A stretch of 21,487 nucleotides of DNA. Source: a virus. Its lineage: Duplodnaviria > Heunggongvirae > Uroviricota > Caudoviricetes. Positions 1,958-17,880 of this stretch are shown here, one piece after another. The notes below the pieces were generated by a model that had not been told where the DNA came from, ran no database searches, and saw nothing but the letters and a program-made list of their open reading frames with translations. The translations under genes were made by a program, and so were the position numbers. The stretch lies in IMG/VR virus record IMGVR_UViG_2703718857_000003, positions 1-21,487 of that record; one strand, given 5' to 3'. The first letter of the stretch is position 1, and each line of letters begins with the position of its first letter.

Positions 1958-2968
1958 TTAACCGTCATGCATCATGCTGGCACGGGCGCGCGCACGTTTA
2001 TCCCGCTCGTATTTTTCGAGCGCATCCTGTAACTGGCGGTCAAGCTGTGTCCCCGGCTCAGTACCACCCGTCAGGCTGATGTGATATTCGTTTTTACTCT
2101 GGTCTACATAAGAGCGGCCAGCCGGTGCCGTGACCGGCTGATAAGCCTGATAGCCTGCATAAGAGCTGGTCGCCGGAATATAACCACCGGTGCCATACGT
2201 GGCGGCATTAGTCCTTGCGGCGGTCTGGTCAAGTGTGTCTGACTCTTTGTTGATAACACCGAGTTTTTCCAGTACCCAGTCAATACCACTGCGCAGTTTG
2301 TTGAACGCATTAAGCGGCAGCATCAACGCGTCAGCCAGTGCCTGCCCGAACATGACGCCCGTGTCACGGCAACGGTTCAGGGTGTCCTGTGTGGCTTTAA
2401 CCGGGGCAATCAGGTTTTTAAACCACTGCCACGCGGCCTGTAACTTTTCGCCCAGCCAGTCAAACACCGGCTTCAGTGGCGTGAACAGTTCTCCCACCGG
2501 CGCAAATGCCGCTTTCAGCCCTTCCACCACACCGCCAAAGAATGCGCTGACAGGCTCCCAGTATTTACGGATAAGCAACGCCCCGGCGACAATGGCGGCC
2601 ACCACGGCCACAACCGGCCAGCTAATCGCCCCGATGGCCGTCATAACAGCACTGCCAACCGTCGTGAAGATTGCCCCCATTGCGCCTGCTGCCGCGATGA
2701 TGGCATTGATGCCAGTGATAACCGGCCAGGCTACGAGGCCAATGGCACCGATGACAGCAGTCAGCGCCAGTGCGCCACCGGCAATGAGGCCGATGGTTGA
2801 CGCCAGTGATTTGTTTTTCTGGATCCAGCCATCGAGTTTTAACACATACTTTGTGGCCGTCTGTGTGAGATTACGCAGTGCGCCTTCCTGCTGGTCAAAC
2901 AGGTCAGTCCCCACCGCCTCATAAGCAGACTGAAACTCCTTAAAGTCACCGCCGAGGTTATCCTGCAT
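1958..2968 (-). pseudogene. T: Tail tape-measure protein T, 3' fragment only (5' ~480 codons absent)
   Basis: 336-aa ORF with Gly/Ala-rich hydrophobic stretches typical of a tape measure, directly upstream of U. The reading frame is open upstream only as far as the lysB stop codon (3065-3067), so the N-terminal portion of an ~815-aa P2-type T cannot be present. Confidence 0.7.
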
Positions 2969-3018
2969 GATTTTAACCAGCTCTTCCGTTTTACCGTCCG
3001 AGGCTTTCAGCGTGGCGG

Positions 3019-3210
3019 TCAGCTTATCCAGTTTTCGGCACTTAAATCGCCGTTCGTCTGCGGGTCACTGCCCGGCATCGGGCAAAGGCTCACTTTCGGG
3101 CAGGCGTTGGGGACAATCACTGGCGTCGGTGCAGGCGTGGCGCTGGTGCAACCGGCGCACAGCATCAGGCAGGTCAGCACCGTACCAGCGGCGAAAATCT
3201 TCGTTCTCAT
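3019..3210 (-). CDS. lysC: LysC, Rz1-like lipoprotein spanin; 3' end overlaps lysB out of frame
   Basis: Product MRTKIFAAGTVLTCLMLCAGC... has a signal-peptide-like N-terminus with Cys residues (lipobox-like) and a Pro-rich tail; GAGG 8 nt upstream of the ATG at 3210. The maximal ORF extends to 3327, so the start is uncertain. Confidence 0.55.
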   Translation of the reverse strand: MRTKIFAAGTVLTCLMLCAGCTSATPAPTPVIVPNACPKVSLCPMPGSDPQTNGDLSAENWIS

Positions 3211-3903: not shown

Positions 3904-3940
3904 GGTGTTTACTCCGTTTTAAGGGCAGGGGGAAACCGTA

Positions 3941-4438
3941 ATGCCGGTTATTAACACGCATCAGAATATCGCCGCCTTTCTCGACATGCTGGCCGTGTCC
4001 GAAGGGACGGCGAACCATCCGCTGACGAAAAACCGGGGCTATGACGTGATAGTCACCGGACTGGACGGAAAGCCGGAAATTTTCACCGACTACAGTGACC
4101 ACCCGTTCGCACATGGCCGACCGGCGAAAGTGTTTAACCGTCGCGGTGAAAAATCCACGGCATCCGGTCGCTATCAGCAGCTTTACCTGTTCTGGCCGCA
4201 CTACCGCAAACAGCTTGCCCTGCCGGATTTCAGTCCGTTGTCACAGGACAGACTCGCCATTCAGTTGATCCGCGAACGCGGTGCACTGGATGACATCCGG
4301 GCGGGACGCATTGAGCGCGCCATTTCACGCTGTCGCAATATCTGGGCGTCCCTGCCGGGTGCCGGTTACGGTCAGCGTGAGCATTCACTGGAAAAACTGG
4401 TCACCGTCTGGCGTACCGCTGGCGGCGTACCGGCTTAA
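3941..4438 (+). CDS. K: Endolysin K (lambda R-like lytic transglycosylase), inverted relative to the lysis operon
   Basis: 165-aa product MPVINTHQNIAAFLDMLAVSEGT...GYDVIVTG...IWASLPGAGYGQ has clear similarity to lambda R-family lysozymes and the length of P2 gpK. It is on the opposite strand from flanking Y and lysA. Confidence 0.85.
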   Translation: MPVINTHQNIAAFLDMLAVSEGTANHPLTKNRGYDVIVTGLDGKPEIFTDYSDHPFAHGRPAKVFNRRGEKSTASGRYQQLYLFWPHYRKQLALPDFSPLSQDRLAIQLIRERGALDDIRAGRIERAISRCRNIWASLPGAGYGQREHSLEKLVTVWRTAGGVPA

Positions 4439-4696
4439 GCGGCGCTGAATGGCAATCTCAATCACCTGATAACCGGCGATACCCAGCATGGAGCCGATGC
4501 CGCACACCGCAGGCAGTGACAGGTCAGGAAACTGCACCAGAACAACACCGGCAACCATCGAGACAAAACCACCGAGCAACATGCGCCCGATAAACAGACG
4601 CGGGGTGATGGGTTCACCACCGGCAAGCACCTTGCCGACAACAATCAGCACCCCAATCATGAAAAGCGACAGGACGCTTTTTTCTTCTGCTGTCAT
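4385..4696 (-). CDS. Y: Holin Y, with C-terminus altered by the adjacent inversion
   Basis: 103-aa ORF with hydrophobic helices (LSLFMIGVLIVVGKVLAGG..., GFVSMVAGVVLVQF). The last 17 codons run through the 3' end of the inverted K segment. Confidence 0.7.
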   Translation of the reverse strand: MTAEEKSVLSLFMIGVLIVVGKVLAGGEPITPRLFIGRMLLGGFVSMVAGVVLVQFPDLSLPAVCGIGSMLGIAGYQVIEIAIQRRLSRYAASGTPDGDQFFQ

Positions 4697-5511: not shown

Positions 5512-6255
5512 TTAACTGGCTTTCTTTTTCGGGCGTCCACGTTTTGCCGGTGTCACGCTCCGGGTCTTACGCGGAGTGCGGGTGGCCGCTTTGGGCTGCG
5601 GCTCCGGCTTCGGTTTCAGCTCCCGCTCCAGTCGTTCAATCTCTTTTTTGACGCCTGCCTGACAGTCGAGCTGTGTCGCACGTTGCAGGTGCGCCAGCGC
5701 ACCGGCGGCATCACCAGCGTCACGCAGAAACAGACCGGTGATTTTGTGCAGCTTTGCGCGCACTTCATCAGGCATGTCAGCCGTGGCGGTCAGTTCGAGG
5801 GTGTCCGTCAGCAGGCGGGGATTCACAGACTCACCGGCAGCGTGAGCGCGCATGGCCGCAAGCGCCACCTCCTCGGTGAACATGTACGGCGGGGTGCGGC
5901 GGTGTTTACCCGGCATGGTCAGACCGTACTTCAGGGCATAACGGGCAATCTCCAGCGCACCGGCAATATCGCCGGTATCCAGACGCCACAGCATGACCGT
6001 CATCAGAATGTCATCCTGTGCACCTTTGCCCTGCTCCAGCACGCCGTTCACCCACGGCAACCAGAACGGCAGCAGTTCGCGTTTTTTCGCGGCCTTCAGC
6101 TCTTTTGAATAAATTGCTTTCAGTGTGCGCTGGTCTGCGGCCAGCTTGACCAGCATCTGCTCATAGACAGTTGCATGTCGCAGCGGGGCGGCTTCCCGCT
6201 GCGCGGTCATCGCTGCCGAGACCCGCATCATGTGGCGCTGTGCGGGACTCGTCAT
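5512..6255 (-). CDS. M: Terminase endonuclease (small) subunit M
   Basis: 247-aa ORF, the length of P2 gpM; basic Lys/Arg/Pro-rich C-terminus; synteny N-M-L. Confidence 0.8.
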   Translation of the reverse strand: MTSPAQRHMMRVSAAMTAQREAAPLRHATVYEQMLVKLAADQRTLKAIYSKELKAAKKRELLPFWLPWVNGVLEQGKGAQDDILMTVMLWRLDTGDIAGALEIARYALKYGLTMPGKHRRTPPYMFTEEVALAAMRAHAAGESVNPRLLTDTLELTATADMPDEVRAKLHKITGLFLRDAGDAAGALAHLQRATQLDCQAGVKKEIERLERELKPKPEPQPKAATRTPRKTRSVTPAKRGRPKKKAS

Positions 6256-8418: not shown

Positions 8419-9656
8419 ATGACCATCACCACAGACACCACTCTTTTACACGACCCGCGTCGTCAGGCGGCGCTGCTGTACTGGCAGGGGTTTTCCGTGC
8501 CGCAGATTGCCGCCATGTTGCAGATGAAACGCCCGACAGTGCAGAGCTGGAAACAGCGCGACGGCTGGGACAGCGTTGCCCCCATCAGCCGTGTCGAAAT
8601 GAGTCTGGAAGCGCGGCTGACCCAGCTCATCATCAAACCACAGAAAACCGGCGGTGACTTCAAGGAAATTGACCTGCTGGGACGCCAGATTGAACGACTG
8701 GCACGGGTCAACCGCTACAGCCAGACCGGCAACGAGGCAGACCTTAATCCGAACGTCGCTACCCGTTCTGGTCGGGTGAACTGTTCAACCGGGGACGCGC
8801 CAGCGCCGCCGAACGCGTGGAAATCGACGTCAGTCATAACGCACTTGCCGGAGGTCTTCTCTGTGCGGACGGCCAGTGGCGGCAGATTGTCACCATTGAG
8901 GACGCCCTGAAAGGTGGCTGCACGCTGTTCGACATTGAGCAGCTTAAACGCGAAAACAGCGCCGACGATTTTAAAAACCTGTTCATGTGTGAATTTGTTG
9001 ACGACAAGGCGTCGGTGTTCCCGTTCGAGGAGCTGCAACGCTGCATGGTCGACACGCTGGAAGAATGGGAAGACTATGCGCCGTTTGCCGCCAATCCGTT
9101 CGGCTCACGTCCGGTATGGATTGGTTACGACCCGTCACACCGTGGCGACAGTGCCGGATGCGTGGTGCTGGCACCGCCGGTGGTGGCCGGTGGCAAATTC
9201 AGAATACTTGAGCGTCACCAGTGGAAAGGCATGGACTTTGCCACCCAGGCTGAATCCATCCGCGAACTCACCGAAAAATACAACGTCGAATACATCGGTA
9301 TTGATGCCACCGGCCTCGGTGTCGGCGTGTTCCAGCTCGTGCGCTCGTTCTATCCCGCCGCGCGCGATATCCGCTACACGCCGGAAATGAAAACCGCAAT
9401 GGTGCTCAAGGCAAAAGACGTTATTCGCCGTGGCTGTCTGGAATATGACGTCAGCGCCACCGACATCACCAGCTCGTTTATGGCTATCCGCAAGACCATG
9501 ACCAGCAGCGGACGCAGCGCCACCTATGAGGCCAGCCGCAGCGAGGAAGCCAGCCACGCCGACCTCGCCTGGGCGACCATGCACGCCCTGTTAAATGAGC
9601 CACTCACCGCGGGTATCAGCACTCCGCTGACATCCACCATTCTGGAGTTTTACTGA
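8419..9656 (+). pseudogene. P: Large terminase (ATPase) subunit P, internally deleted and frameshifted
   Basis: The N-terminal part (MTITTDTTLLHDPRRQAALLYWQGF...NPNVA) is in one frame and the C-terminal RNaseH-like nuclease part (YPFWSGELF...VWIGYDPSH...IGIDATGLG...HADLAWA) is in another; the frames overlap between 8658 and 8910. The total span is ~412 codons versus ~590 for P2 gpP, and no Walker A/B ATPase segment is present. Confidence 0.7.
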
Positions 9657-10684
9657 TGAGCAAGAAAAAAGGGAAAACACCGCGACTAGCGGCAAAAAAA
9701 ATGACCGCCAGCGCCCCGAAAATGGAGGCATTCACCTTTGGTGAACCGGTGCCGGTACTCGACCGCCGTGACATTCTGGATTACGTCGAGTGCATCAGTA
9801 ACGGCAGATGGTATGAGCCACCGGTCAGCTTTACCGGTCTGGCAAAAAGCCTGCGTGCTGCCGTACATCACAGCTCACCGATTTACGTCAAACGTAATAT
9901 TCTGGCTTCAACGTTTATTCCGCACCCGTGGCTTTCCCAGCAGGATTTCAGCCGCTTTGTGCTGGATTTTCTGGTGTTCGGCAATGCGTTTCTGGAAAAG
10001 CGTTACAGCACCACCGGTAAGGTCATCAGACTGGAAACCTCACCGGCAAAATATACCCGCCGTGGGGTGGAAGAGGATGTTTACTGGTGGGTGCCGTCCT
10101 TCAACGAACCGACAGCCTTCGCGCCCGGCTCCGTATTTCACCTGCTGGAGCCGGATATCAATCAGGAGCTGTACGGCCTGCCGGAATATCTCAGCGCCCT
10201 TAACTCTGCCTGGCTGAATGAGTCGGCCACGCTGTTCCGCCGCAAGTATTATGAAAACGGCGCACATGCCGGATACATCATGTACGTCACCGATGCCGTG
10301 CAGGACCGCAACGATATCGAAATGCTTCGCGAAAACATGGTTAAGTCGAAAGGCCGCAATAACTTTAAAAATCTGTTTCTCTATGCCCCACAGGGGAAAG
10401 CCGACGGCATTAAAATTATCCCGCTCAGTGAAGTGGCAACGAAGGACGATTTTTTTAATATCAAAAAAGCCAGCGCCGCTGACCTGCTGGACGCGCACCG
10501 CATCCCCTTTCAGTTGATGGGGGGCAAGCCGGAGAACGTCGGGTCGCTGGGTGATATTGAGAAAGTGGCAAAGGTCTTTGTCCGCAATGAGCTTATCCCG
10601 TTACAGGACAGGATCCGCGAGATAAACGGCTGGCTCGGTCAGGAGGTCATCCGCTTTAAAGATTACAGTCTAGAATCTAATTAA
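9656..10684 (+). CDS. Q: Portal protein Q
   Basis: 342-aa ORF, close to the 344 aa of P2 gpQ; start overlaps the P stop (ATGA); synteny P-Q next to cos. Confidence 0.85.
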   Translation: MSKKKGKTPRLAAKKMTASAPKMEAFTFGEPVPVLDRRDILDYVECISNGRWYEPPVSFTGLAKSLRAAVHHSSPIYVKRNILASTFIPHPWLSQQDFSRFVLDFLVFGNAFLEKRYSTTGKVIRLETSPAKYTRRGVEEDVYWWVPSFNEPTAFAPGSVFHLLEPDINQELYGLPEYLSALNSAWLNESATLFRRKYYENGAHAGYIMYVTDAVQDRNDIEMLRENMVKSKGRNNFKNLFLYAPQGKADGIKIIPLSEVATKDDFFNIKKASAADLLDAHRIPFQLMGGKPENVGSLGDIEKVAKVFVRNELIPLQDRIREINGWLGQEVIRFKDYSLESN

Positions 10685-10694
10685 GTACCCTTAG

Positions 10695-10712
10695 CGCCGT
10701 CTCCAGACGGCG
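10695..10712. terminator. Bidirectional hairpin between convergent Q and the cargo operon
   Basis: Perfect 7-bp GC-rich stem CGCCGTC/GACGGCG with loop TCCA, 11 nt after the Q stop and between the two convergent gene ends; followed by T-rich sequence on the plus strand. Confidence 0.45.
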
Positions 10713-10779
10713 TGATTCTATGCAATCCAGGCAAGATTAACCCCCAACACCTTCAATTACTATATGGTTTAATAGAAAT

Positions 10780-11469
10780 TCAATCTTTAACTTCAATATA
10801 TGAAGAAGAAAACCATATAGATTTTTTCCCATTTATGTATTTAGAAACAGGCGAGCCATCTTCGTTCATTGCCTCAGCACTAAATGTTACATAATACATT
10901 CCTTTTTCTTTTGTCGAAACAAGATAGTTCAAGCGTCTTTCGGCAGAGATAGGAACGGATATATCATATAAAGGTATATTTTTAGCTTTTCCTTGCGAGC
11001 TACTTTCTTCATTAAGAACAGCCAACTCCTCATAATAATTTGGATAAAAAACTTCCGTAGCGACTTGCTTTGCACCGGCCGATAAAACACGACTAACAGC
11101 AAGGGACTTGTTATTAAGCTTCACATAAATTCGCTCATTACTGTTATTCCTAATAGTTACAATAGGCTTTATATAAAACACATCATCGATTTTAACAACA
11201 TTAACGTCAACATTAAAAAATGTCGATTCTGTATTTCTAATTCTATTTCTTAACTCTATAAGATCAGCTTCTGCCTTATCCCTTTGGTGCAAAACATCAA
11301 AAGTATATCCTCCCCACACAAGTGTCAAAACAGCGCACAATGACATCACGACGTTATTAAACTGATCGTGTGTTCTGTAAATATCTTTGAATTTTAAAAT
11401 TAATAATAGACATGCTATGAATAGCATGCCTATTATCAGCCAGTGTTCTTTTACAAATTCAAAGTTCAT
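10780..11469 (-). CDS. Uncharacterised membrane protein with two N-terminal TM helices and a beta-rich soluble C-terminal domain (cargo)
   Basis: 229-aa ORF; hydrophobic segments WLIIGMLFIACLLLIL and VVMSLCAVLTLVWGGYTF, then a Ser/Asn/Lys/Val/Tyr-rich soluble domain. AT-rich codon usage; start 2 nt after the stop of the upstream ORF. No family recognised by eye. Confidence 0.6.
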   Translation of the reverse strand: MNFEFVKEHWLIIGMLFIACLLLILKFKDIYRTHDQFNNVVMSLCAVLTLVWGGYTFDVLHQRDKAEADLIELRNRIRNTESTFFNVDVNVVKIDDVFYIKPIVTIRNNSNERIYVKLNNKSLAVSRVLSAGAKQVATEVFYPNYYEELAVLNEESSSQGKAKNIPLYDISVPISAERRLNYLVSTKEKGMYYVTFSAEAMNEDGSPVSKYINGKKSIWFSSSYIEVKD

Positions 11470-11471
11470 AG

Positions 11472-12554
11472 TTAGTCACTCGCATGCCTCGCATCACCAT
11501 CTTCAGGGAAATTGATCCCCTGTCCGATCTCACGGTTCGTTGGACGAGCAGAAACAAAGCCTCTATTTTGTCTTTTTAAACGCAACTCTAGAACTTGAGA
11601 AACTCTATCAAAGTTTAATCCATCCATTGCAACCTCTTTTTTCCCTTCAATATGAGATCGAAGTTCCTCACTTATACGATTATCAACCGTTGAAGCGAAG
11701 GCTACATCATGATTAAAAATGGCCCCCATAATTAACATAAACGCAATTCCGGCCTTTCTATTATTTGTTTTAAATTGTAGCCAAACATCCCCCGGAGACA
11801 TCAACATTTGTTGAGCAGTCAAGGATAACTCTCCATTATTAGAAAGTCTTTCCATCTCAAACTGAACAACTTCGTTTGTATACTCGCCATCAAACTCTTC
11901 GCCAATTAATAGCGCAAGTACCTGCACTCTATCGACCAGCTCAGCCAGCTGCTTAAGAGTATGATGCCGAATGGCTTCTGCTTGCTCGACTCTTAAGCTA
12001 GTACAGAAAATATTATCCGTTATAAAGAATGACATTAACCAATGCAGTACTTCTTCTGACTTCCCGCCCAAAGAGAATACGGTCTGGTATGCAGTAAACG
12101 ATTTCTGAAGAGCTAATGGAATCTCTCGTCTGCGAACTGGCTCTCCCCATGTGACTCTACGTCTTACATGAAACCCTTCATTATTACCTAAACATTCACG
12201 CTCAAAATACGCGGAAGATGCAATAACTCCAGGAACAACCATATCACCTGACAAAGTGAAAACAACATCACCGACCTGCATATCTATGAGGAAATTTTCA
12301 ATTTGGGTATGAATATTTCTTGAACCAATAGTATCTAACCCATCAACCTTTTGATTAATATTTTCATGGTTAATTTCATCATTAAAGTCAATTTGATCTG
12401 GACTTAACCTATCCAAGTGAGCAGTAGCAACCATATTGCGTTCAAGGAAGTCTGCAAAATATCTATACTTAATCCCAGGTCTAACGACCCAACACTTTAC
12501 ATTTAAATCAACATGTTGTACTGAAATAGCTCTTTGTGATGAAGTTCCAAGCAT
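11472..12554 (-). CDS. Uncharacterised soluble protein, first gene of the two-gene cargo operon
   Basis: Long AT-rich ORF; 361 aa from the first ATG at 12554, or 366 aa from the TTG at 12572. No Walker, HNH, DxD-nucleotidyltransferase or other motif recognised by eye. Confidence 0.55.
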   Translation of the reverse strand: MLGTSSQRAISVQHVDLNVKCWVVRPGIKYRYFADFLERNMVATAHLDRLSPDQIDFNDEINHENINQKVDGLDTIGSRNIHTQIENFLIDMQVGDVVFTLSGDMVVPGVIASSAYFERECLGNNEGFHVRRRVTWGEPVRRREIPLALQKSFTAYQTVFSLGGKSEEVLHWLMSFFITDNIFCTSLRVEQAEAIRHHTLKQLAELVDRVQVLALLIGEEFDGEYTNEVVQFEMERLSNNGELSLTAQQMLMSPGDVWLQFKTNNRKAGIAFMLIMGAIFNHDVAFASTVDNRISEELRSHIEGKKEVAMDGLNFDRVSQVLELRLKRQNRGFVSARPTNREIGQGINFPEDGDARHASD

Positions 12555-12778
12555 AGCTGATCCATAATTCAAAAAATTTTACGCATTTTACATATTTTTA
12601 TTTAAGACTCTAGAGCGTTAGGAATGATGAATCGCTTCAACAGATTATTTTTTGTGCAGATAGTGTGCTTAAACCAACTCATCGTAACGAAAGCACTCGC
12701 CTGAATCGTAAAGATAACATCTCATGACTCGATTCATAGGCTAATAGTATTATGCAATGGTCGTTAATGGAGCGCGCA

Positions 12779-12797
12779 GTGCTTTCCCCGCCTCGCC
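12779..12797. other. cos site: 19-nt cohesive-end sequence GGCGAGGCGGGGAAAGCAC (read on minus strand)
   Basis: Exact match, on the minus strand, to the 19-nt cohesive-end sequence as I recall it for phage P2 (not verified against a database). Followed towards the Q side by TGCGCGCT and then AT-rich cargo. A GC hairpin plus T-run (12797-12820) abuts it on the A side. Confidence 0.6.
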
Positions 12798-12939
12798 CGC
12801 CCGCTTCGTGGGGCGGTTTTAATGCAGATGCATTATGAGCCCTGAGCTGCGCCTAACGTGACACAGTTCACGAGAAAAATAGGAATTATCAAATGCAATT
12901 TCATGCAGATAGAGAGGCATGAGATCCCGAAGCTTATAT

Positions 12940-14292
12940 TCAACCCTCTGCCGAAATATTTCTTTGGAGAAATGCTCTAATTTTTTGCCTGAAAGCCTCA
13001 CATTCATCAGGCTTTAACCTCTCAAGGTATTCAAAAATCCTAGTTTCATCCCAGCCGTTGTTATAGGTTTTCACTACCCCTCGATAAACTTGCTTATCAA
13101 GTTTATCGTTACCTCTAGTTGTAACTCTCGGGATCGATTCATCTTGGCCGTATGCTTGATAGAAATCCTTCTCAACGCTTTGGAAAGGTATGCATAAAAT
13201 ATTTTCACCTCGAGCATACCTTTGACCTAATTGATCTCCGTCTAACACTGAGATCACATTCTGTTGAGTCGTGAGAAAGCTCTCTCTCTCATTACGACGC
13301 ATTAAATCAATGACATTAGTTCCTCCACCAACATATATTATTTTATATTCGTAGAAGTAATCATTCCCAGGAGCATTAATTATATATTCTAAGAAATTTT
13401 GCAGAACTTCATCTTCAGTAAGAATGTACTTATCCCATCCTTTAAATCCAAAAAGCGTACTTTTTATATAATTATATGATCGATTTGTAATTGTAGTTCC
13501 AGCATCACCTTCGCACATATAGTACAATTCATCATCATTCAGCGTTTGCATTAAAGCAAGTGAATGTGTTGTGAATACAATATTCACCGAGTGTCTCTGA
13601 CAATATTTCCTTAGCACTGCTATAAGATGGACTTGCGCCGAAGAGTCTAGTGATATATCTATCTCATCTATGACAATGAATTTTCTTTTGAGCTCAATCA
13701 TTCTAAATAAATTCAAAATAAAATACTCACCCGAGCTAAAGTAATCCTCCCTTATGTATGTTCCGTTCTCATTCAATCTGAAATAGAAAATTTCATTTTT
13801 TACAGAAAATGCTTTAAGATTATTGTAAGAAGAAGACTGATATACCTCATTGAGTATATTTATCAAATCCTCGGGAACGCTATAGCTTTCAAACGCAATA
13901 CTTTTTCTAAGTTCAGTATCAATTTTACTAAGTGTTGGGAAGTTATTGAACCTCATTCCATGAGGAATGGGCAACTCGACATAAAGATTGGATTTTATAT
14001 CTGCTGGAATTATTTGCTTAGTATCTATTACCTTCAAATTCTCATCATAGACATATACTATATCTTGATCATTAATATTATATACTATACTACTGTCAGG
14101 ATTGAATATATATCTAGAAGATGTCTTTATGAATGTATCTGCTGATTGTAAATTTTTAATTGCTTTGATTAGCGTTGTCTTTCCAGCACCGTTCTTTCCT
14201 ACAATGCAAGTCAGTTTATTTTCAGAAAGATCAATAGCAAATGACATATGTTCAACATGCTGGATTTTCGAGATCTCAATATTTATTTTCAT
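12940..14292 (-). CDS. OLD-family ABC-type ATPase with C-terminal Toprim-like domain (retron-associated effector candidate)
   Basis: 450 aa; Walker A GKNGAGKTT near the N-terminus, Walker B FIVIDEIDISLD, H-loop-like VFTTHS; C-terminal ILTEDEV and VLDGDQLG resemble the Toprim Glu and DxD motifs. Start ATG is 1 nt after the RT stop, indicating translational coupling. Confidence 0.7.
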   Translation of the reverse strand: MKINIEISKIQHVEHMSFAIDLSENKLTCIVGKNGAGKTTLIKAIKNLQSADTFIKTSSRYIFNPDSSIVYNINDQDIVYVYDENLKVIDTKQIIPADIKSNLYVELPIPHGMRFNNFPTLSKIDTELRKSIAFESYSVPEDLINILNEVYQSSSYNNLKAFSVKNEIFYFRLNENGTYIREDYFSSGEYFILNLFRMIELKRKFIVIDEIDISLDSSAQVHLIAVLRKYCQRHSVNIVFTTHSLALMQTLNDDELYYMCEGDAGTTITNRSYNYIKSTLFGFKGWDKYILTEDEVLQNFLEYIINAPGNDYFYEYKIIYVGGGTNVIDLMRRNERESFLTTQQNVISVLDGDQLGQRYARGENILCIPFQSVEKDFYQAYGQDESIPRVTTRGNDKLDKQVYRGVVKTYNNGWDETRIFEYLERLKPDECEAFRQKIRAFLQRNISAEG

Positions 14293-14293
14293 T

Positions 14294-15283
14294 TTAATTT
14301 ACATTCTTGTAAAAAAGCATATCGACAATCGTATTTCCGTATTTTCTCTTTAGCTTATCGAGATAACTCTTATCAATTGTGTTTATATGATTCAAAAGAC
14401 CAGAAACTGTATTAACGCCCTTTTCCAAGATCTCACTATCATTCAATCCGCTAGTTTTAACCTTAGGATCTTTTATTATAGAATCTATAAATTTATCTTT
14501 ATCCGTTACATAAAAATGAATCAAATGCTCAAGCTTTCTTTTTATTTTAATATCAACAGAGACTATCTGAGACGGTAAAATAACCATCCCCAGCAGCTTA
14601 ATCTTACTGCCTTTTTTAATCAATTTAGTTTTTGCTGAGTTTAGTTTGAAATGTCCCTTCCCAAACTCACCCAGCAGGTCACTTACTACAGAATGAATAT
14701 TCTCAAAGCCCTCATCATTTTCAGAGGAAATAATAATATCATCTGAATAGCGTGTGAATATATATTCATGGTTAATACAATATTGCTGCATCTCAACATC
14801 AAAGTCATATAAACATGCATTGCTGAAAGCTGGTGATGTCGGGAACCCTACAGGCAACGAATTATCGATAATAATATAATCTAAAATTTTATCCAAGTGT
14901 ATATTTAAATCGGAAATGGGAACGTTCGATAAGTTATCAACTAAAACTGATCGTGCATATTCACGAGTTATCGATGGGAAAAAGCTTTTAATATCAGTAT
15001 TGAAGAATATCTTACTACAGGCGTGAAGTTTTACTGCATCATAAGTGCTGCTTCCTTTTCTATACGAAAACACAACATCCTTATTTACTTTCAAGTATGA
15101 AAGAACAAATTCATTTATGAATTTGTGATACTCTTTTAGTTTAGAAGTGGGCTCAGCAATTAACCTTTCATCAAAGGTTATAAATTTAGTTTGTTGAAAT
15201 GGTTCAAACGAAAGAAAGTTTTGAAAGGAATCTTTTTCGAAGAATGCAATATTGAAGGCTTTTTCGAGACTAAGGGGTTTCAT
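14294..15283 (-). CDS. Retron-type reverse transcriptase
   Basis: 329 aa with RT motifs in order: NTDIKSFFPSI (domain 2), LPVGFPTSPAFSNA (domain 4), FTRYSDDIIIS (YxDD catalytic box). Motif order and spacing parallel retron Ec86 RT as I recall it (NIDLEDFFPSL / LPQGAPSSPKLANL / YTRYADDLTLS); size is typical of retron RTs. Confidence 0.8.
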   Translation of the reverse strand: MKPLSLEKAFNIAFFEKDSFQNFLSFEPFQQTKFITFDERLIAEPTSKLKEYHKFINEFVLSYLKVNKDVVFSYRKGSSTYDAVKLHACSKIFFNTDIKSFFPSITREYARSVLVDNLSNVPISDLNIHLDKILDYIIIDNSLPVGFPTSPAFSNACLYDFDVEMQQYCINHEYIFTRYSDDIIISSENDEGFENIHSVVSDLLGEFGKGHFKLNSAKTKLIKKGSKIKLLGMVILPSQIVSVDIKIKRKLEHLIHFYVTDKDKFIDSIIKDPKVKTSGLNDSEILEKGVNTVSGLLNHINTIDKSYLDKLKRKYGNTIVDMLFYKNVN

Positions 15284-15289
15284 CGTTGG

Positions 15290-15440
15290 CTGAGCTTTTG
15301 TTTTTTGAGTTGAATGGATTCTAAGATGAATGCTTTAACTCTCAGTCTTTCCTCACCCCAGACACCCTCCCTTCGCAGGCTTTACTTCTTGTACATACCT
15401 TCTCTCGAAAGAGAAGGCAGTACAAGAGCAACACTATATA
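15290..15440 (-). ncRNA. Candidate retron msr/msd non-coding RNA region (boundaries uncertain)
   Basis: Non-coding stretch immediately upstream of the RT containing a long interrupted hairpin at 15387-15427 (8-bp stem TCTTGTAC/GTACAAGA, internal loop, 7-bp stem CCTTCTC/GAGAAGG, loop TCGAAA), as expected for an msd stem. I could not identify a1/a2 flanking repeats by eye. Confidence 0.3.
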
Positions 15441-15456
15441 AAGGCCTGTAGAGGCC
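15441..15456 (-). terminator. Possible intrinsic terminator downstream of A (minus strand)
   Basis: 5-bp GC stem GGCCT/AGGCC with loop GTAG, followed on the minus strand by TTTATATA. The stem is short, and it could instead be part of the ncRNA. Confidence 0.25.
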
Positions 15457-15609
15457 AACATTTATGACTGGAGATGCTCCTAGTCGTTGGCATAAAAACA
15501 CTTTAAACCAGATTATGAGCATTTACAACATTTCAAGCCGTCGAACGCAGCCCCAATCAGAAAAGAACTCACACGGCCATCATAACATCATGATTTAGAT
15601 GGATATAAA

Positions 15610-17880
15610 TCACCCTTCATGCTTCACCCACTCGTCCGCTATCGGGTATACAAATCTTTTTTCGCCATAAACCACTATTCCGCCACGAGCCAGCGCCTGA
15701 AGTTCCCACCGCTGCGGCGTGATACCCTGCTGCGCCAGTTCGAAGCGGATGCGCGGAATCTGAGCCCTCTCGGCTTTTGTCATTCGCCCTGATGGTGCTA
15801 TCTGATGCGATTTTAATGGCTCATCGCTTCTTTGCTGTCGATTTTGCTGCGGCGCGCCGTGTTTTAATGCACTCCTGAGCACCGTCACAACTTCGGGGTC
15901 ATCCCATGCAATAACCCCATCATCGACAAGATTTAGCACCGCTGCGGCATGCTCAGACGGCGTAGGTGTCATAACTGGATCGCCACCGTCGGCAAGCTTT
16001 CCACAGTTATTGACAGGACTCCGAGGCGCGGCGATGCCGCTTTTTAAAGTCAAAGGCTCAACGACCGGAACTTTCGGCACAATGCGCCAGTCCGTCGTTC
16101 TGGTGATATGAATATGACGCGCGCCGAGATGCGGCGCGTAAATGCCGACCACTCTCTCGACTTCTTCCTCGTACTCGTTAACGTCATCCGACGGGCTACG
16201 GGCGACCCTGACAGTCTGACAATCGCGCGGGACATTTGCCCCGCCCTGCGCGCTGATATACAACGCAAAATCACCACTGTCTGCAGCGGCGCGTGCAGCC
16301 TCGACGCGCTCGTCAAACTCATCAGCAATGCTGACGCCGCGAGGCAATTTGCGTAGTTCACGGTAAGCCCCCATTGTCGGCAGACCAACCGTTTTAAATT
16401 GCGGAATGCGCCACGTTGACGCCCATGCGGTAACAGCCGCAGCAGTATCTTTCAGCGGCCTGCCGGTATCGTTATCGAGCTGACCATCCAGTGCATAGCC
16501 ATCGATGTTTTTTGAGATGTATTTCGCGATATACCCCGCAGCACCGCCCCGGTTAAGATGTTTTGCCTGAAAACGGTTTCGCGCGGCTCCTCTTTCGTCT
16601 CCATCCTCTTTGAGCGCGTAGCGACGCATGATTTCAATAATCTGGTTACGCTGGCGTGGATTACAAAAAAGCATCATATGCCAGTGCGGCGTTCCGTCGT
16701 GGTGTGGCTCGACGACACGCAAACCGTAGACCTGTAAATCATTATCCTTGAATGCCGTGCGCATCAGGCTCCAGATATGGCAGAGATAACGCTGCGCATC
16801 CTTTGGATTAAATGCCTCATCGTTCCAGCCGTGATTTAGCTGGACGGTTTTACTTTCGCCTTTTCTGACCTGACGTGTCGGGTGATACTTTGACGGCGCG
16901 GTCAGCGTGATAAACATCCCCACATCACCCTCTGCGGCGGCGTAACGCTCAATACCGGCGATGGTGTTCATCAGCTCCATCCGGCGAATTTCTGGATTAG
17001 AAATACTGCCCATCACCTTACTGATAAGGTCGATGCGCTCGCCGGTTTCCTTGTTTTCAAGGTCACACGATTTAAGAAATTCCAGATTTGCCTGGCGGCG
17101 CGCACGCACATCACGAATGGCATGTTTACTGGCATAAGGAGAACGGTCTTTATTGACCTCCCCGACAGCAATCAGTAACGCCTCATGCCAGCGCATACGC
17201 TGGCCTTTAAGCTGATGAGTCCACCACTCATCGTTAAACAGGCGGGCAATGGCAGAATATGCCTGCCTCGTGGTCATCTGCCCTTTACGGTATTTTTTCC
17301 AGTAAAGCGGGGAAATATTGAAAGCACGTGCAGCGCCAGCAACATGACCATAGAGGTGAGCCTGCGCCTCATCCGTAAACAGCGATTCTTTTTCGCCATG
17401 TGCATCAACCCAGGCATCGCAGAGTTCCTCATACATCATGAAAAGCTGCGATGAGATACGGGCAGCAAACTTTTTCAGCTCCTTGTCATTCATCCCCGGC
17501 AGGCGCGCATACTGGTCGCGCTCTGCCAGAAACAGCAACGACGCGTCGGTGTTCATTTCATGGCGCTGATTCACACGCTCAATGCGCGGCCATAAACGAC
17601 GCTGAAAAGTGGATGTGAGGAAATAAAACCCGTGCACCGGGCTTTTATTGCGCCGGATGTAGTCATAGCGTGAAGTAAACAGCGAGCGCAAAAAGTAAGG
17701 CAGGCGGTTAATCGTGGATAAAACACCTTGCACCTGACGCATCTCGTCACGTGTAAGGGGTCTTTCGCGCCCGACGGCCTCGCGTGGCGCGTTCCATGCA
17801 TAAGCACCGATAAACGCCTTACCGGTGCCTGCGGCAAATGCTGACGGAGGGACAAAACGCCCGGAGGCTTTAACGGCCAT
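15610..17880 (-). CDS. A: Replication initiation protein A (rolling-circle initiator, P2 gpA-like)
   Basis: 756 aa from the ATG at 17880 (MAVKASGRFVPPSAFAAGTGK...), close to the ~761 aa of P2 gpA; synteny B-small ORFs-A. The maximal ORF extends to 17922. Confidence 0.8.
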   Translation of the reverse strand: MAVKASGRFVPPSAFAAGTGKAFIGAYAWNAPREAVGRERPLTRDEMRQVQGVLSTINRLPYFLRSLFTSRYDYIRRNKSPVHGFYFLTSTFQRRLWPRIERVNQRHEMNTDASLLFLAERDQYARLPGMNDKELKKFAARISSQLFMMYEELCDAWVDAHGEKESLFTDEAQAHLYGHVAGAARAFNISPLYWKKYRKGQMTTRQAYSAIARLFNDEWWTHQLKGQRMRWHEALLIAVGEVNKDRSPYASKHAIRDVRARRQANLEFLKSCDLENKETGERIDLISKVMGSISNPEIRRMELMNTIAGIERYAAAEGDVGMFITLTAPSKYHPTRQVRKGESKTVQLNHGWNDEAFNPKDAQRYLCHIWSLMRTAFKDNDLQVYGLRVVEPHHDGTPHWHMMLFCNPRQRNQIIEIMRRYALKEDGDERGAARNRFQAKHLNRGGAAGYIAKYISKNIDGYALDGQLDNDTGRPLKDTAAAVTAWASTWRIPQFKTVGLPTMGAYRELRKLPRGVSIADEFDERVEAARAAADSGDFALYISAQGGANVPRDCQTVRVARSPSDDVNEYEEEVERVVGIYAPHLGARHIHITRTTDWRIVPKVPVVEPLTLKSGIAAPRSPVNNCGKLADGGDPVMTPTPSEHAAAVLNLVDDGVIAWDDPEVVTVLRSALKHGAPQQNRQQRSDEPLKSHQIAPSGRMTKAERAQIPRIRFELAQQGITPQRWELQALARGGIVVYGEKRFVYPIADEWVKHEG

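Follow-up and report, generated by a model that had tools for sequence, protein, structure and literature searches.

An intact P2-type cos site between a retron module and a two-gene cassette in a defective P2-like prophage

The window (the whole 21,487-nt stretch of DNA that was analyzed) contains an intact P2-type cos site, in which the exact 19-nt cohesive-end sequence is set within a complete 55-bp core. The best explanation, in which we place high confidence, is that it is the genuine cos of a P2-like, pro483-related Peduovirus prophage, located at its canonical place between A and Q, and that its survival has most likely been passive. The prophage itself can no longer use the site, and the two cargo modules that flank it, a type I-B retron and a two-gene cassette, assort independently of each other. 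The P2-family cos, its 55-bp core, its position between gpA and gpQ, and the retrons and defence genes adjoining it have all been published previously. The main features of the window are collected in Table 1.

Table 1. Features of the window that bear on the cos site and its surroundings
Feature	Position	Strand	Basis and remarks
19-nt cohesive-end sequence (cosN equivalent)	12779..12797	-	Exact match
55-bp cos core	12772..12826	-	Alignment of the window with the P2, P4, and 186 junctions
65-bp block, the sole sequence common to the retron-module and cassette-module homology blocks	12771..12835		E. coli genome matches
GC hairpin, stem 12797-12802 / 12811-12816, 8-nt loop, then TTTT at 12817-20	12797..12820	+	Terminator-like scan
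Palindrome TAATGC-AGAT-GCATTA, at the right-arm edge of the conserved block	12820..12835		Fold
Retron ATPase-Toprim effector, gpA side	12940-14292	-	PADLOC ATPase-Toprim_I-B, 3.3e-179
Type I-B retron RT, gpA side	14294-15283	-	PADLOC RT_I-B, 6.5e-110
Two-gene cassette, gpQ side (left arm)	10780..12554	-	
DUF8426 protein	11472-12554	-	RefSeq annotation; weak PADLOC PDC-S02 match, 2.5e-12
229-aa protein, no significant family match	10780-11469	-	ORF; Pfam/PADLOC
gpQ portal gene, intact	9656..10684	+	342/344 aa aligned; 97.7% P2, 98.2% pro483; Pfam Phage_portal
gpP (large terminase) remnant	8419..9656	+	tblastn and Pfam
gpM small terminase gene, intact	5515..6255	-	247/247 aa aligned, 97.6% P2 gpM
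gpA replication endonuclease gene, ori nick region around 16022	15610..17880	-	tblastn 751/761 aa, 92.8% P2

The cohesive-end sequence GGCGAGGCGGGGAAAGCAC has a single exact match in the window, with nothing else found at three or fewer mismatches, and shuffles give a chance expectation of 0.01. On the plus strand, the cos region reads ...gcgcgcaGTGCTTTCCCCGCCTCGCCcgcccgcttcgtggggcggttttaatgcagatgcatta... The exact comparison with the P2 reference cos, proposed as a check in the initial annotation, was carried out, and the 19-mer proved identical to both ends of the P2 RefSeq record NC_001895, annotated as cosL ('left cohesive end', 1-19) and cosR (33575-33593). The first 19 nt of the P4 record NC_001609 are the same 19-mer, and phage 186 differs from it at 2 positions. 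The core was aligned by joining the right and left ends of P2, P4, and 186 and comparing these junctions with the window; it consists of TGCATTAAAACCGCCCCnnnAAGCGGGCG, the 19-mer, and nGCGCGC. This block, which P2 and P4 have in common, corresponds to the 55-bp cos of Ziermann and Calendar (1990), as cited in PMC9594776, PMC5694545, and PMC2231350. Identity of the window core is 53/55 with P2 and 52/55 with P4, the latter being also the identity between P2 and P4. The differences from P2 are confined to the loop of the inverted repeat, where two substitutions are found (ACG versus GTG) at positions where natural variants differ freely. Conservation of at least 90% extends from about -36 to +7 around the 19-mer in a sample of 116 distinct flanks, taken from IMG/VR contigs with the exact 19-mer, and the window agrees with this pattern. 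Escherichia phage 10W, whose record gives E. coli lysogens as the source, shares a 63-bp stretch with the window at 100% identity. Judged by these comparisons, the cis sequence requirements of a P2-type cos are present in full, and the site would be cleavable by a P2-type terminase supplied in trans.

By synteny with P2 and pro483, cos is located between the side of the replication gene A and the portal gene Q. The 19-mer had been placed between two cargo modules by the initial annotation, and this arrangement was confirmed, the retron being on the gpA side and the cassette on the gpQ side. The further description of cos as embedded in a cargo island is correct insofar as cargo is found on either side, but there is nothing special in it, since the gpA-gpQ region houses cos in all P2-like phages. 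In a live phage, the gpM/gpP terminase recognizes the 55-bp core on a closed circle and introduces staggered nicks 19 nt apart, which yields a linear genome with 19-nt 5' cohesive ends, the A-side cargo at its right end, and the Q-side cargo at its left end. The virion ends proposed for the window, which assign the retron to the right (A) end and the cassette to the left (Q) end, agree with synteny with the P2 map, in which cosL lies beside Q. P2-like elements mostly continue on the Q side with a left-arm flank conserved at 60-80% (TGGCGGTGGTGCTGATT...). The window is without this usual flank, its cargo beginning directly after TGCGCGCT, so that the part of the P2 left arm beyond this point (about 160 bp to tQ) is replaced by the 2-kb cassette. 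Since longer cos flanks increased cosmid transduction more than 1000-fold in one study (PMC9594776), the absence of the left-arm flank could reduce packaging efficiency.

The P2 cos occupies the same place as that of the window, between the A-side accessory genes and Q, and has the same orientation to Q/P and M; in P2, the genes adjoining cosR are old and tin. A difference from P2 is that the cognate large terminase gene of the window is broken. P4 resembles the window in carrying defence-type cargo directly beside cos, and its core functions with entirely unrelated flanks; P4 also does without the P2 left-arm flank, which does not prevent its packaging. As an 11.6-kb satellite, however, P4 exploits its helper by means of sid, psu, delta, and epsilon, whereas the element in the window is a P2-like phage in decay that carries capsid genes of its own and, of the P4 functions, a homolog of ogr/delta alone. 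No P4-type genes (epsilon, sid/psu, or the alpha primase) were observed in the synteny map of the window.

All four cargo genes are located on the minus strand, which is the strand of A. For the gpA-side module, an anti-phage function is suggested by very strong HMM matches to retron I-B, and the retron protein genes also match Pfam RVT_1 and AAA_21. The cassette gave a weak match to the candidate system PDC-S02, and its second gene matched no family. The same retron module adjoins cos at 99.9% identity in intact prophages, e.g., in E. coli PEC395. In the gap between the RT gene and A (15284-15609), nested perfect inverted repeats, TCTTGTAC...GTACAAGA enclosing CCTTCTCT/AGAGAAGG, are located at 15387-15427, upstream of the RT gene on the minus strand, and constitute a candidate msd stem. 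Rfam searches gave no matches at the gathering threshold over the whole window, and at E<=1 over 12500-15700 they likewise assigned neither cos nor the retron ncRNA to a curated RNA family; no msr/msd family was found over the repeat region. The DUF8426 cassette is very common (indexed in 1081 blocks) and was found in P2-like prophages at two integration sites with differing right-side cargo, namely yegS/yegR, with a P2-type integrase of 337 aa, and pflA/pflB, with a pro483-type integrase of 331 aa. Several cassette-carrying prophages are heavily deleted, independently of each other. Among the sequenced phages of the phage collection, neither cargo module was present, and the match was to the cos core alone.

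The cos-proximal region between gpA and gpQ has been described as a defence hotspot with 1,650 arrangements, retrons included (Rousset et al., 2022, PMC9122126), and extra genes between cosL and the Q homolog have been noted as a hotspot (PMC5694545). The window likewise carries variable accessory genes between gpA and gpQ, beside cos, by which the hotspot is recognized, and shares with the published cases the locus, the cargo class, and the link to cos (PMC9122126, PMC13586616). The available sections of these two papers treat gpA-gpQ as a single hotspot, whereas in the window the two sides of cos are separately exchangeable and are joined at the 65-bp core. According to PMC13586616, where they appear as 'UGRs', P2 elements that are defective but have kept their defence genes well conserved occur commonly. 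Compared with these, the window is a specific case with a deletion in P, a 12.8-kb tail deletion, and an inversion of K, and with an early region in which int, C, and cox still match those of an intact phage at 100% identity. Retrons beside cos in P2/186-like prophages were reportedly noted by Dodd and Egan in 1996 (Virology 219:115). In the P2/186-like prophages that bear the retrons Ec67 and Ec86, the retron lies between cos and the replication-gene side, as in the window; unlike in this comparison, the retron of the window is of type I-B (RT and ATPase-Toprim) and is carried on a pro483-like backbone.

BLAST comparison with P2 and pro483 identified the window as a P2-like (Peduovirus) prophage in reversed orientation, extending from ogr at the left end to the int stop codon at the right end, with the att sites outside the window. 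The element is ~21.5 kb long, i.e., ~64% of the 33.6 kb of P2. Its int, C, and cox show 100% identity to their pro483 counterparts; B, orf80-83, and A are all full length, and the ori context matches P2 at 74/80 positions, including all 30 positions on either side of the nick. The intact genes include Q, O, N, M, L, X, lysA, lysB, U, D, and ogr. The initial annotation had M and Q intact and P broken, and all three assignments hold. In gpP, a net 535-bp frameshifting internal deletion has removed most of the ATPase domain: in tblastn, frame 1 covers the protein up to about residue 116 and frame 3 covers residues 293-590, and the Pfam Terminase_6N match is restricted to profile positions 167-215. 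The deletion junction (8750-8766) lies between imperfect direct repeats (CGCTAACCGT / CGCCTACCCGT in P2), an arrangement suggestive of deletion by slippage or through microhomology.

The prophage is more defective than had been recognized, as the P deletion is accompanied by the tail deletion and the K inversion. At ~3035, the window lacks about 12.8 kb that is present in P2 (10.6 kb by comparison with pro483). This deletion covers R, S, V, W, J, I, H, G, FI, FII, and E, together with the 3' part of lysC and 457 codons from the start of T. The lysB/lysC region is thereby joined to codon 458 of the tape-measure gene T, the truncated T occupying 1961-3034. A 529-bp segment (3914-4442) with the complete endolysin gene K is inverted in comparison with P2 and pro483, so that K, whose 165-aa product is 100% identical to that of P2, is now oriented opposite to the late operon; the inversion is flanked by 6-bp inverted repeats (TTTAAG/CTTAAA), and the last 5 residues of the holin Y are changed. 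With gpP destroyed, K inverted, and none of the tail genes left from R through the first half of T, the prophage itself is unable to use cos.

Survival of the site is most readily understood as passive. A target of 55 bp in a recently decayed prophage, situated between two cargo modules at least one of which (the retron) is a recognized defence system, has a low likelihood of being hit and would persist in this way. The exact 19-mer and the core were kept in all 10 cassette-carrying P2-like prophages examined, at least 4 of which are without some or all of the morphogenesis genes (one has none left, and at least 3 others have large deletions). Because cos is kept equally in decayed prophages, its retention says little about function. 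We infer passive retention here, although sequence alone cannot separate it from weak selection for mobilization.

A mobilized element is the alternative that survives best, although we consider it unlikely. The decayed prophage would be a helper-dependent mobile element, for which a P2-like helper, either co-resident or superinfecting, would supply gpP, tails, and lysis and would package ~21.5 kb via cos, thus spreading both cargo modules. The initial annotation had pointed to such packaging from the retained cos, and in principle it would be mechanistically possible: the core is intact and matches that of the helper; the capsid genes Q, O, N, M, and L, together with ogr, are intact; and the pro483 int, C, and cox, the full-length A and B, and the conserved ori make excision and replication to circles plausible. 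The P2/P4 terminase packages any cos-carrying circular replicon, such as cosmids of 5-10 kb, with a preference for closed circles, and P4 is packaged by the P2 terminase (PMC2231350); cos alone is sufficient in cis for the packaging of circular replicons by P2/P4 (PMC2231350, PMC9942202); and P2 without cos gives no progeny (PMC9942202). Given the preference of the terminase for closed circles, packaging of the element would need excision and replication. When P4 carries a sid mutation, dimers or trimers of its genome are packaged into P2-size heads, which would bear on the packageability of a 21.5-kb molecule.

The step from the retention of cos to packaging by a helper holds in principle only. 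Retention says little, cos being kept just as well in prophages without any morphogenesis genes, and the element has lost its tail genes and carries K in inverted orientation. The att sites are located beyond the window, and repression in the resident element would have to be relieved, which a heteroimmune helper would not obviously bring about, there being no P4 epsilon-like gene. The size of the element, at ~64% of P2, is a further difficulty, as packaging efficiency depends on size match (PMC9942202). A second copy of the deleted element was not found among the 5426 complete E. coli genomes, in which megablast coverage of the whole window was 88% or less. The ORF across the P junction has no exact-protein match on record. 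The ORF of the truncated T has a single match, in a Logan contig, yet the T region there is uninterrupted, and the 32-mer spanning the tail-deletion junction is absent from genome_contigs, which, with one genome per species, is a weak test. As to transfer as a unit, recurrence is limited to the cargo-cos-cargo segment, in one metagenome contig.

A distinctly unlikely reading is that the element is a phage-to-satellite intermediate, packageable by a heteroimmune helper and spreading a new pairing of cargo, with the core serving both as the packaging signal and as the joint at which cargo is shuffled. Such shuffling might be aided by terminase breaks or by cohesive-end joining between co-infecting genomes. 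Such an intermediate would have kept the functions for integration, excision, and replication, the capsid genes, and a perfect cos, and would have lost the terminase ATPase and the tails.

The GC hairpin and the T-run that had been reported as abutting cos are present, but they are part of the cos core and not its neighbor. The sequence is CCGCCC-GCTTCGTG-GGGCGG followed by TTTT, with a 6-bp all-GC stem; the stem opens with the final base of the 19-mer, and the entire hairpin lies within the 55-bp core. The hairpin with its T-run is the conserved right-hand half of cos itself, and there is no separate adjoining terminator. The invariant positions of the hairpin are its 3' arm and the AAGC of the loop, which fits a double-stranded protein-recognition sequence better than a terminator. 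Among 108 distinct core variants, all six stem pairs are intact in 51 and broken in 57, and no compensatory stem changes were found. The common stem changes, C to A (36 times) and G to A (31 times), disrupt pairs, and phage 186 has two uncompensated stem changes. The DNA fold of the 65-mer is no better than that of shuffles (z = -0.49 for the plus strand and -1.39 for the minus strand). As a conserved structure, the hairpin was rejected on account of the broken stems, the missing compensation, and the unremarkable fold.

These data also bear on a very unlikely reading, in which the hairpin and the T-run are a functional intrinsic terminator or insulator that stops late P-Q read-through antisense into the retron, the conservation of cos being secondary. 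The plus-strand pattern of 6 GC pairs followed by TTTTAATG is terminator-like, but it has merely 4 consecutive T and an 8-nt loop, the plus-strand fold is no more stable than shuffles, and natural variants, phage 186 included, break the stem without compensation. The P2 counterpart of this element is located on the P-Q/old transcribed strand, with the Q terminator region on one side and the old promoter on the other, yet tQ is already present upstream in P2, at 160-181. The scan returned 4 terminator-like matches in the region, against a shuffle expectation of 2.9 +/- 1.7.

Two other patterns were observed in and beside the core. In the palindrome at the right-arm edge, the inner five pairs are kept in 86-94% of the variants and the outermost tested pair in 48%. 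At core columns 25 and 40 (window 12813 and 12798), the changes C to A and G to A occur jointly in 19 of the 108 variants, as in 186. These are non-partner positions that form no base pair, and their joint changes may be co-variation with terminase specificity rather than structure.

The two cargo modules assort independently. The retron module alone was found in 10 of the 5426 complete E. coli genomes (window 12771-15610, mostly at 99.8-99.9%) and the cassette alone in 7 (10685-12835, at 99.7-100%), and none of the 5426 carries both. Matches to the retron module start at 12771 and those to the cassette module end at 12827-12835, the overlap being limited to the 65-bp core. In total, 2128 of the 5426 genomes match the query region, through the 65-bp block alone in most of the matches listed. 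The intact prophage of PEC395 has the order retron, cos, nothing, Q, and Ec-U9-2 has another retron, cos, the cassette, and Q. By its polymorphisms, the core of the window equals the retron donors from 12771 upward and the cassette donors from 12807 downward; these limits place the junction of the modules within 37 bp (12771-12807), an interval containing the cohesive-end sequence. Because the core is the sole conserved sequence between the modules, exchange of a single module needs a crossover in the core, and we infer that it occurred there. The cos core would then double as a joint for recombination, through which the cargo on the left can assort independently of that on the right. Candidate routes would be homologous recombination on the short identity, recombination stimulated by terminase breaks, and cohesive-end joining.

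The metagenome contig ERZ773149 NODE-1333 has the same cassette-cos-retron order as the window, at 99.97% over 2990 bp. The first 441 bases of this stretch are unrelated, low in GC, and apparently coding, and are followed by an abrupt switch to the retron RT gene; judged from this non-matching start, the contig is probably chimeric. That the modules meet across cos through mis-assembly of two P2-like prophages at their shared core, or that the 19-mer is a chance match, is scarcely credible: an artefact would fit the lack of a complete E. coli genome with both modules and the frequent presence of several P2-like elements per genome (median of 2 matching places), but the arrangement recurs in this independent contig, typical reads are longer than the 65-bp repeat, and the low chance expectation of the 19-mer, together with its syntenic position, argues against coincidence.

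For annotation, the identification of cos sets the orientation of the element and the map of its virion ends, assigns the hairpin to cos, and marks the boundary of the exchangeable modules. The most useful by-products of the analysis are the corrected account of the prophage defects and the finding that the cargo junction maps to the cos core. If helper packaging were true, the element would illustrate how a phage can decay into a satellite-like carrier of defence systems, which would bear on the spread of defence genes.
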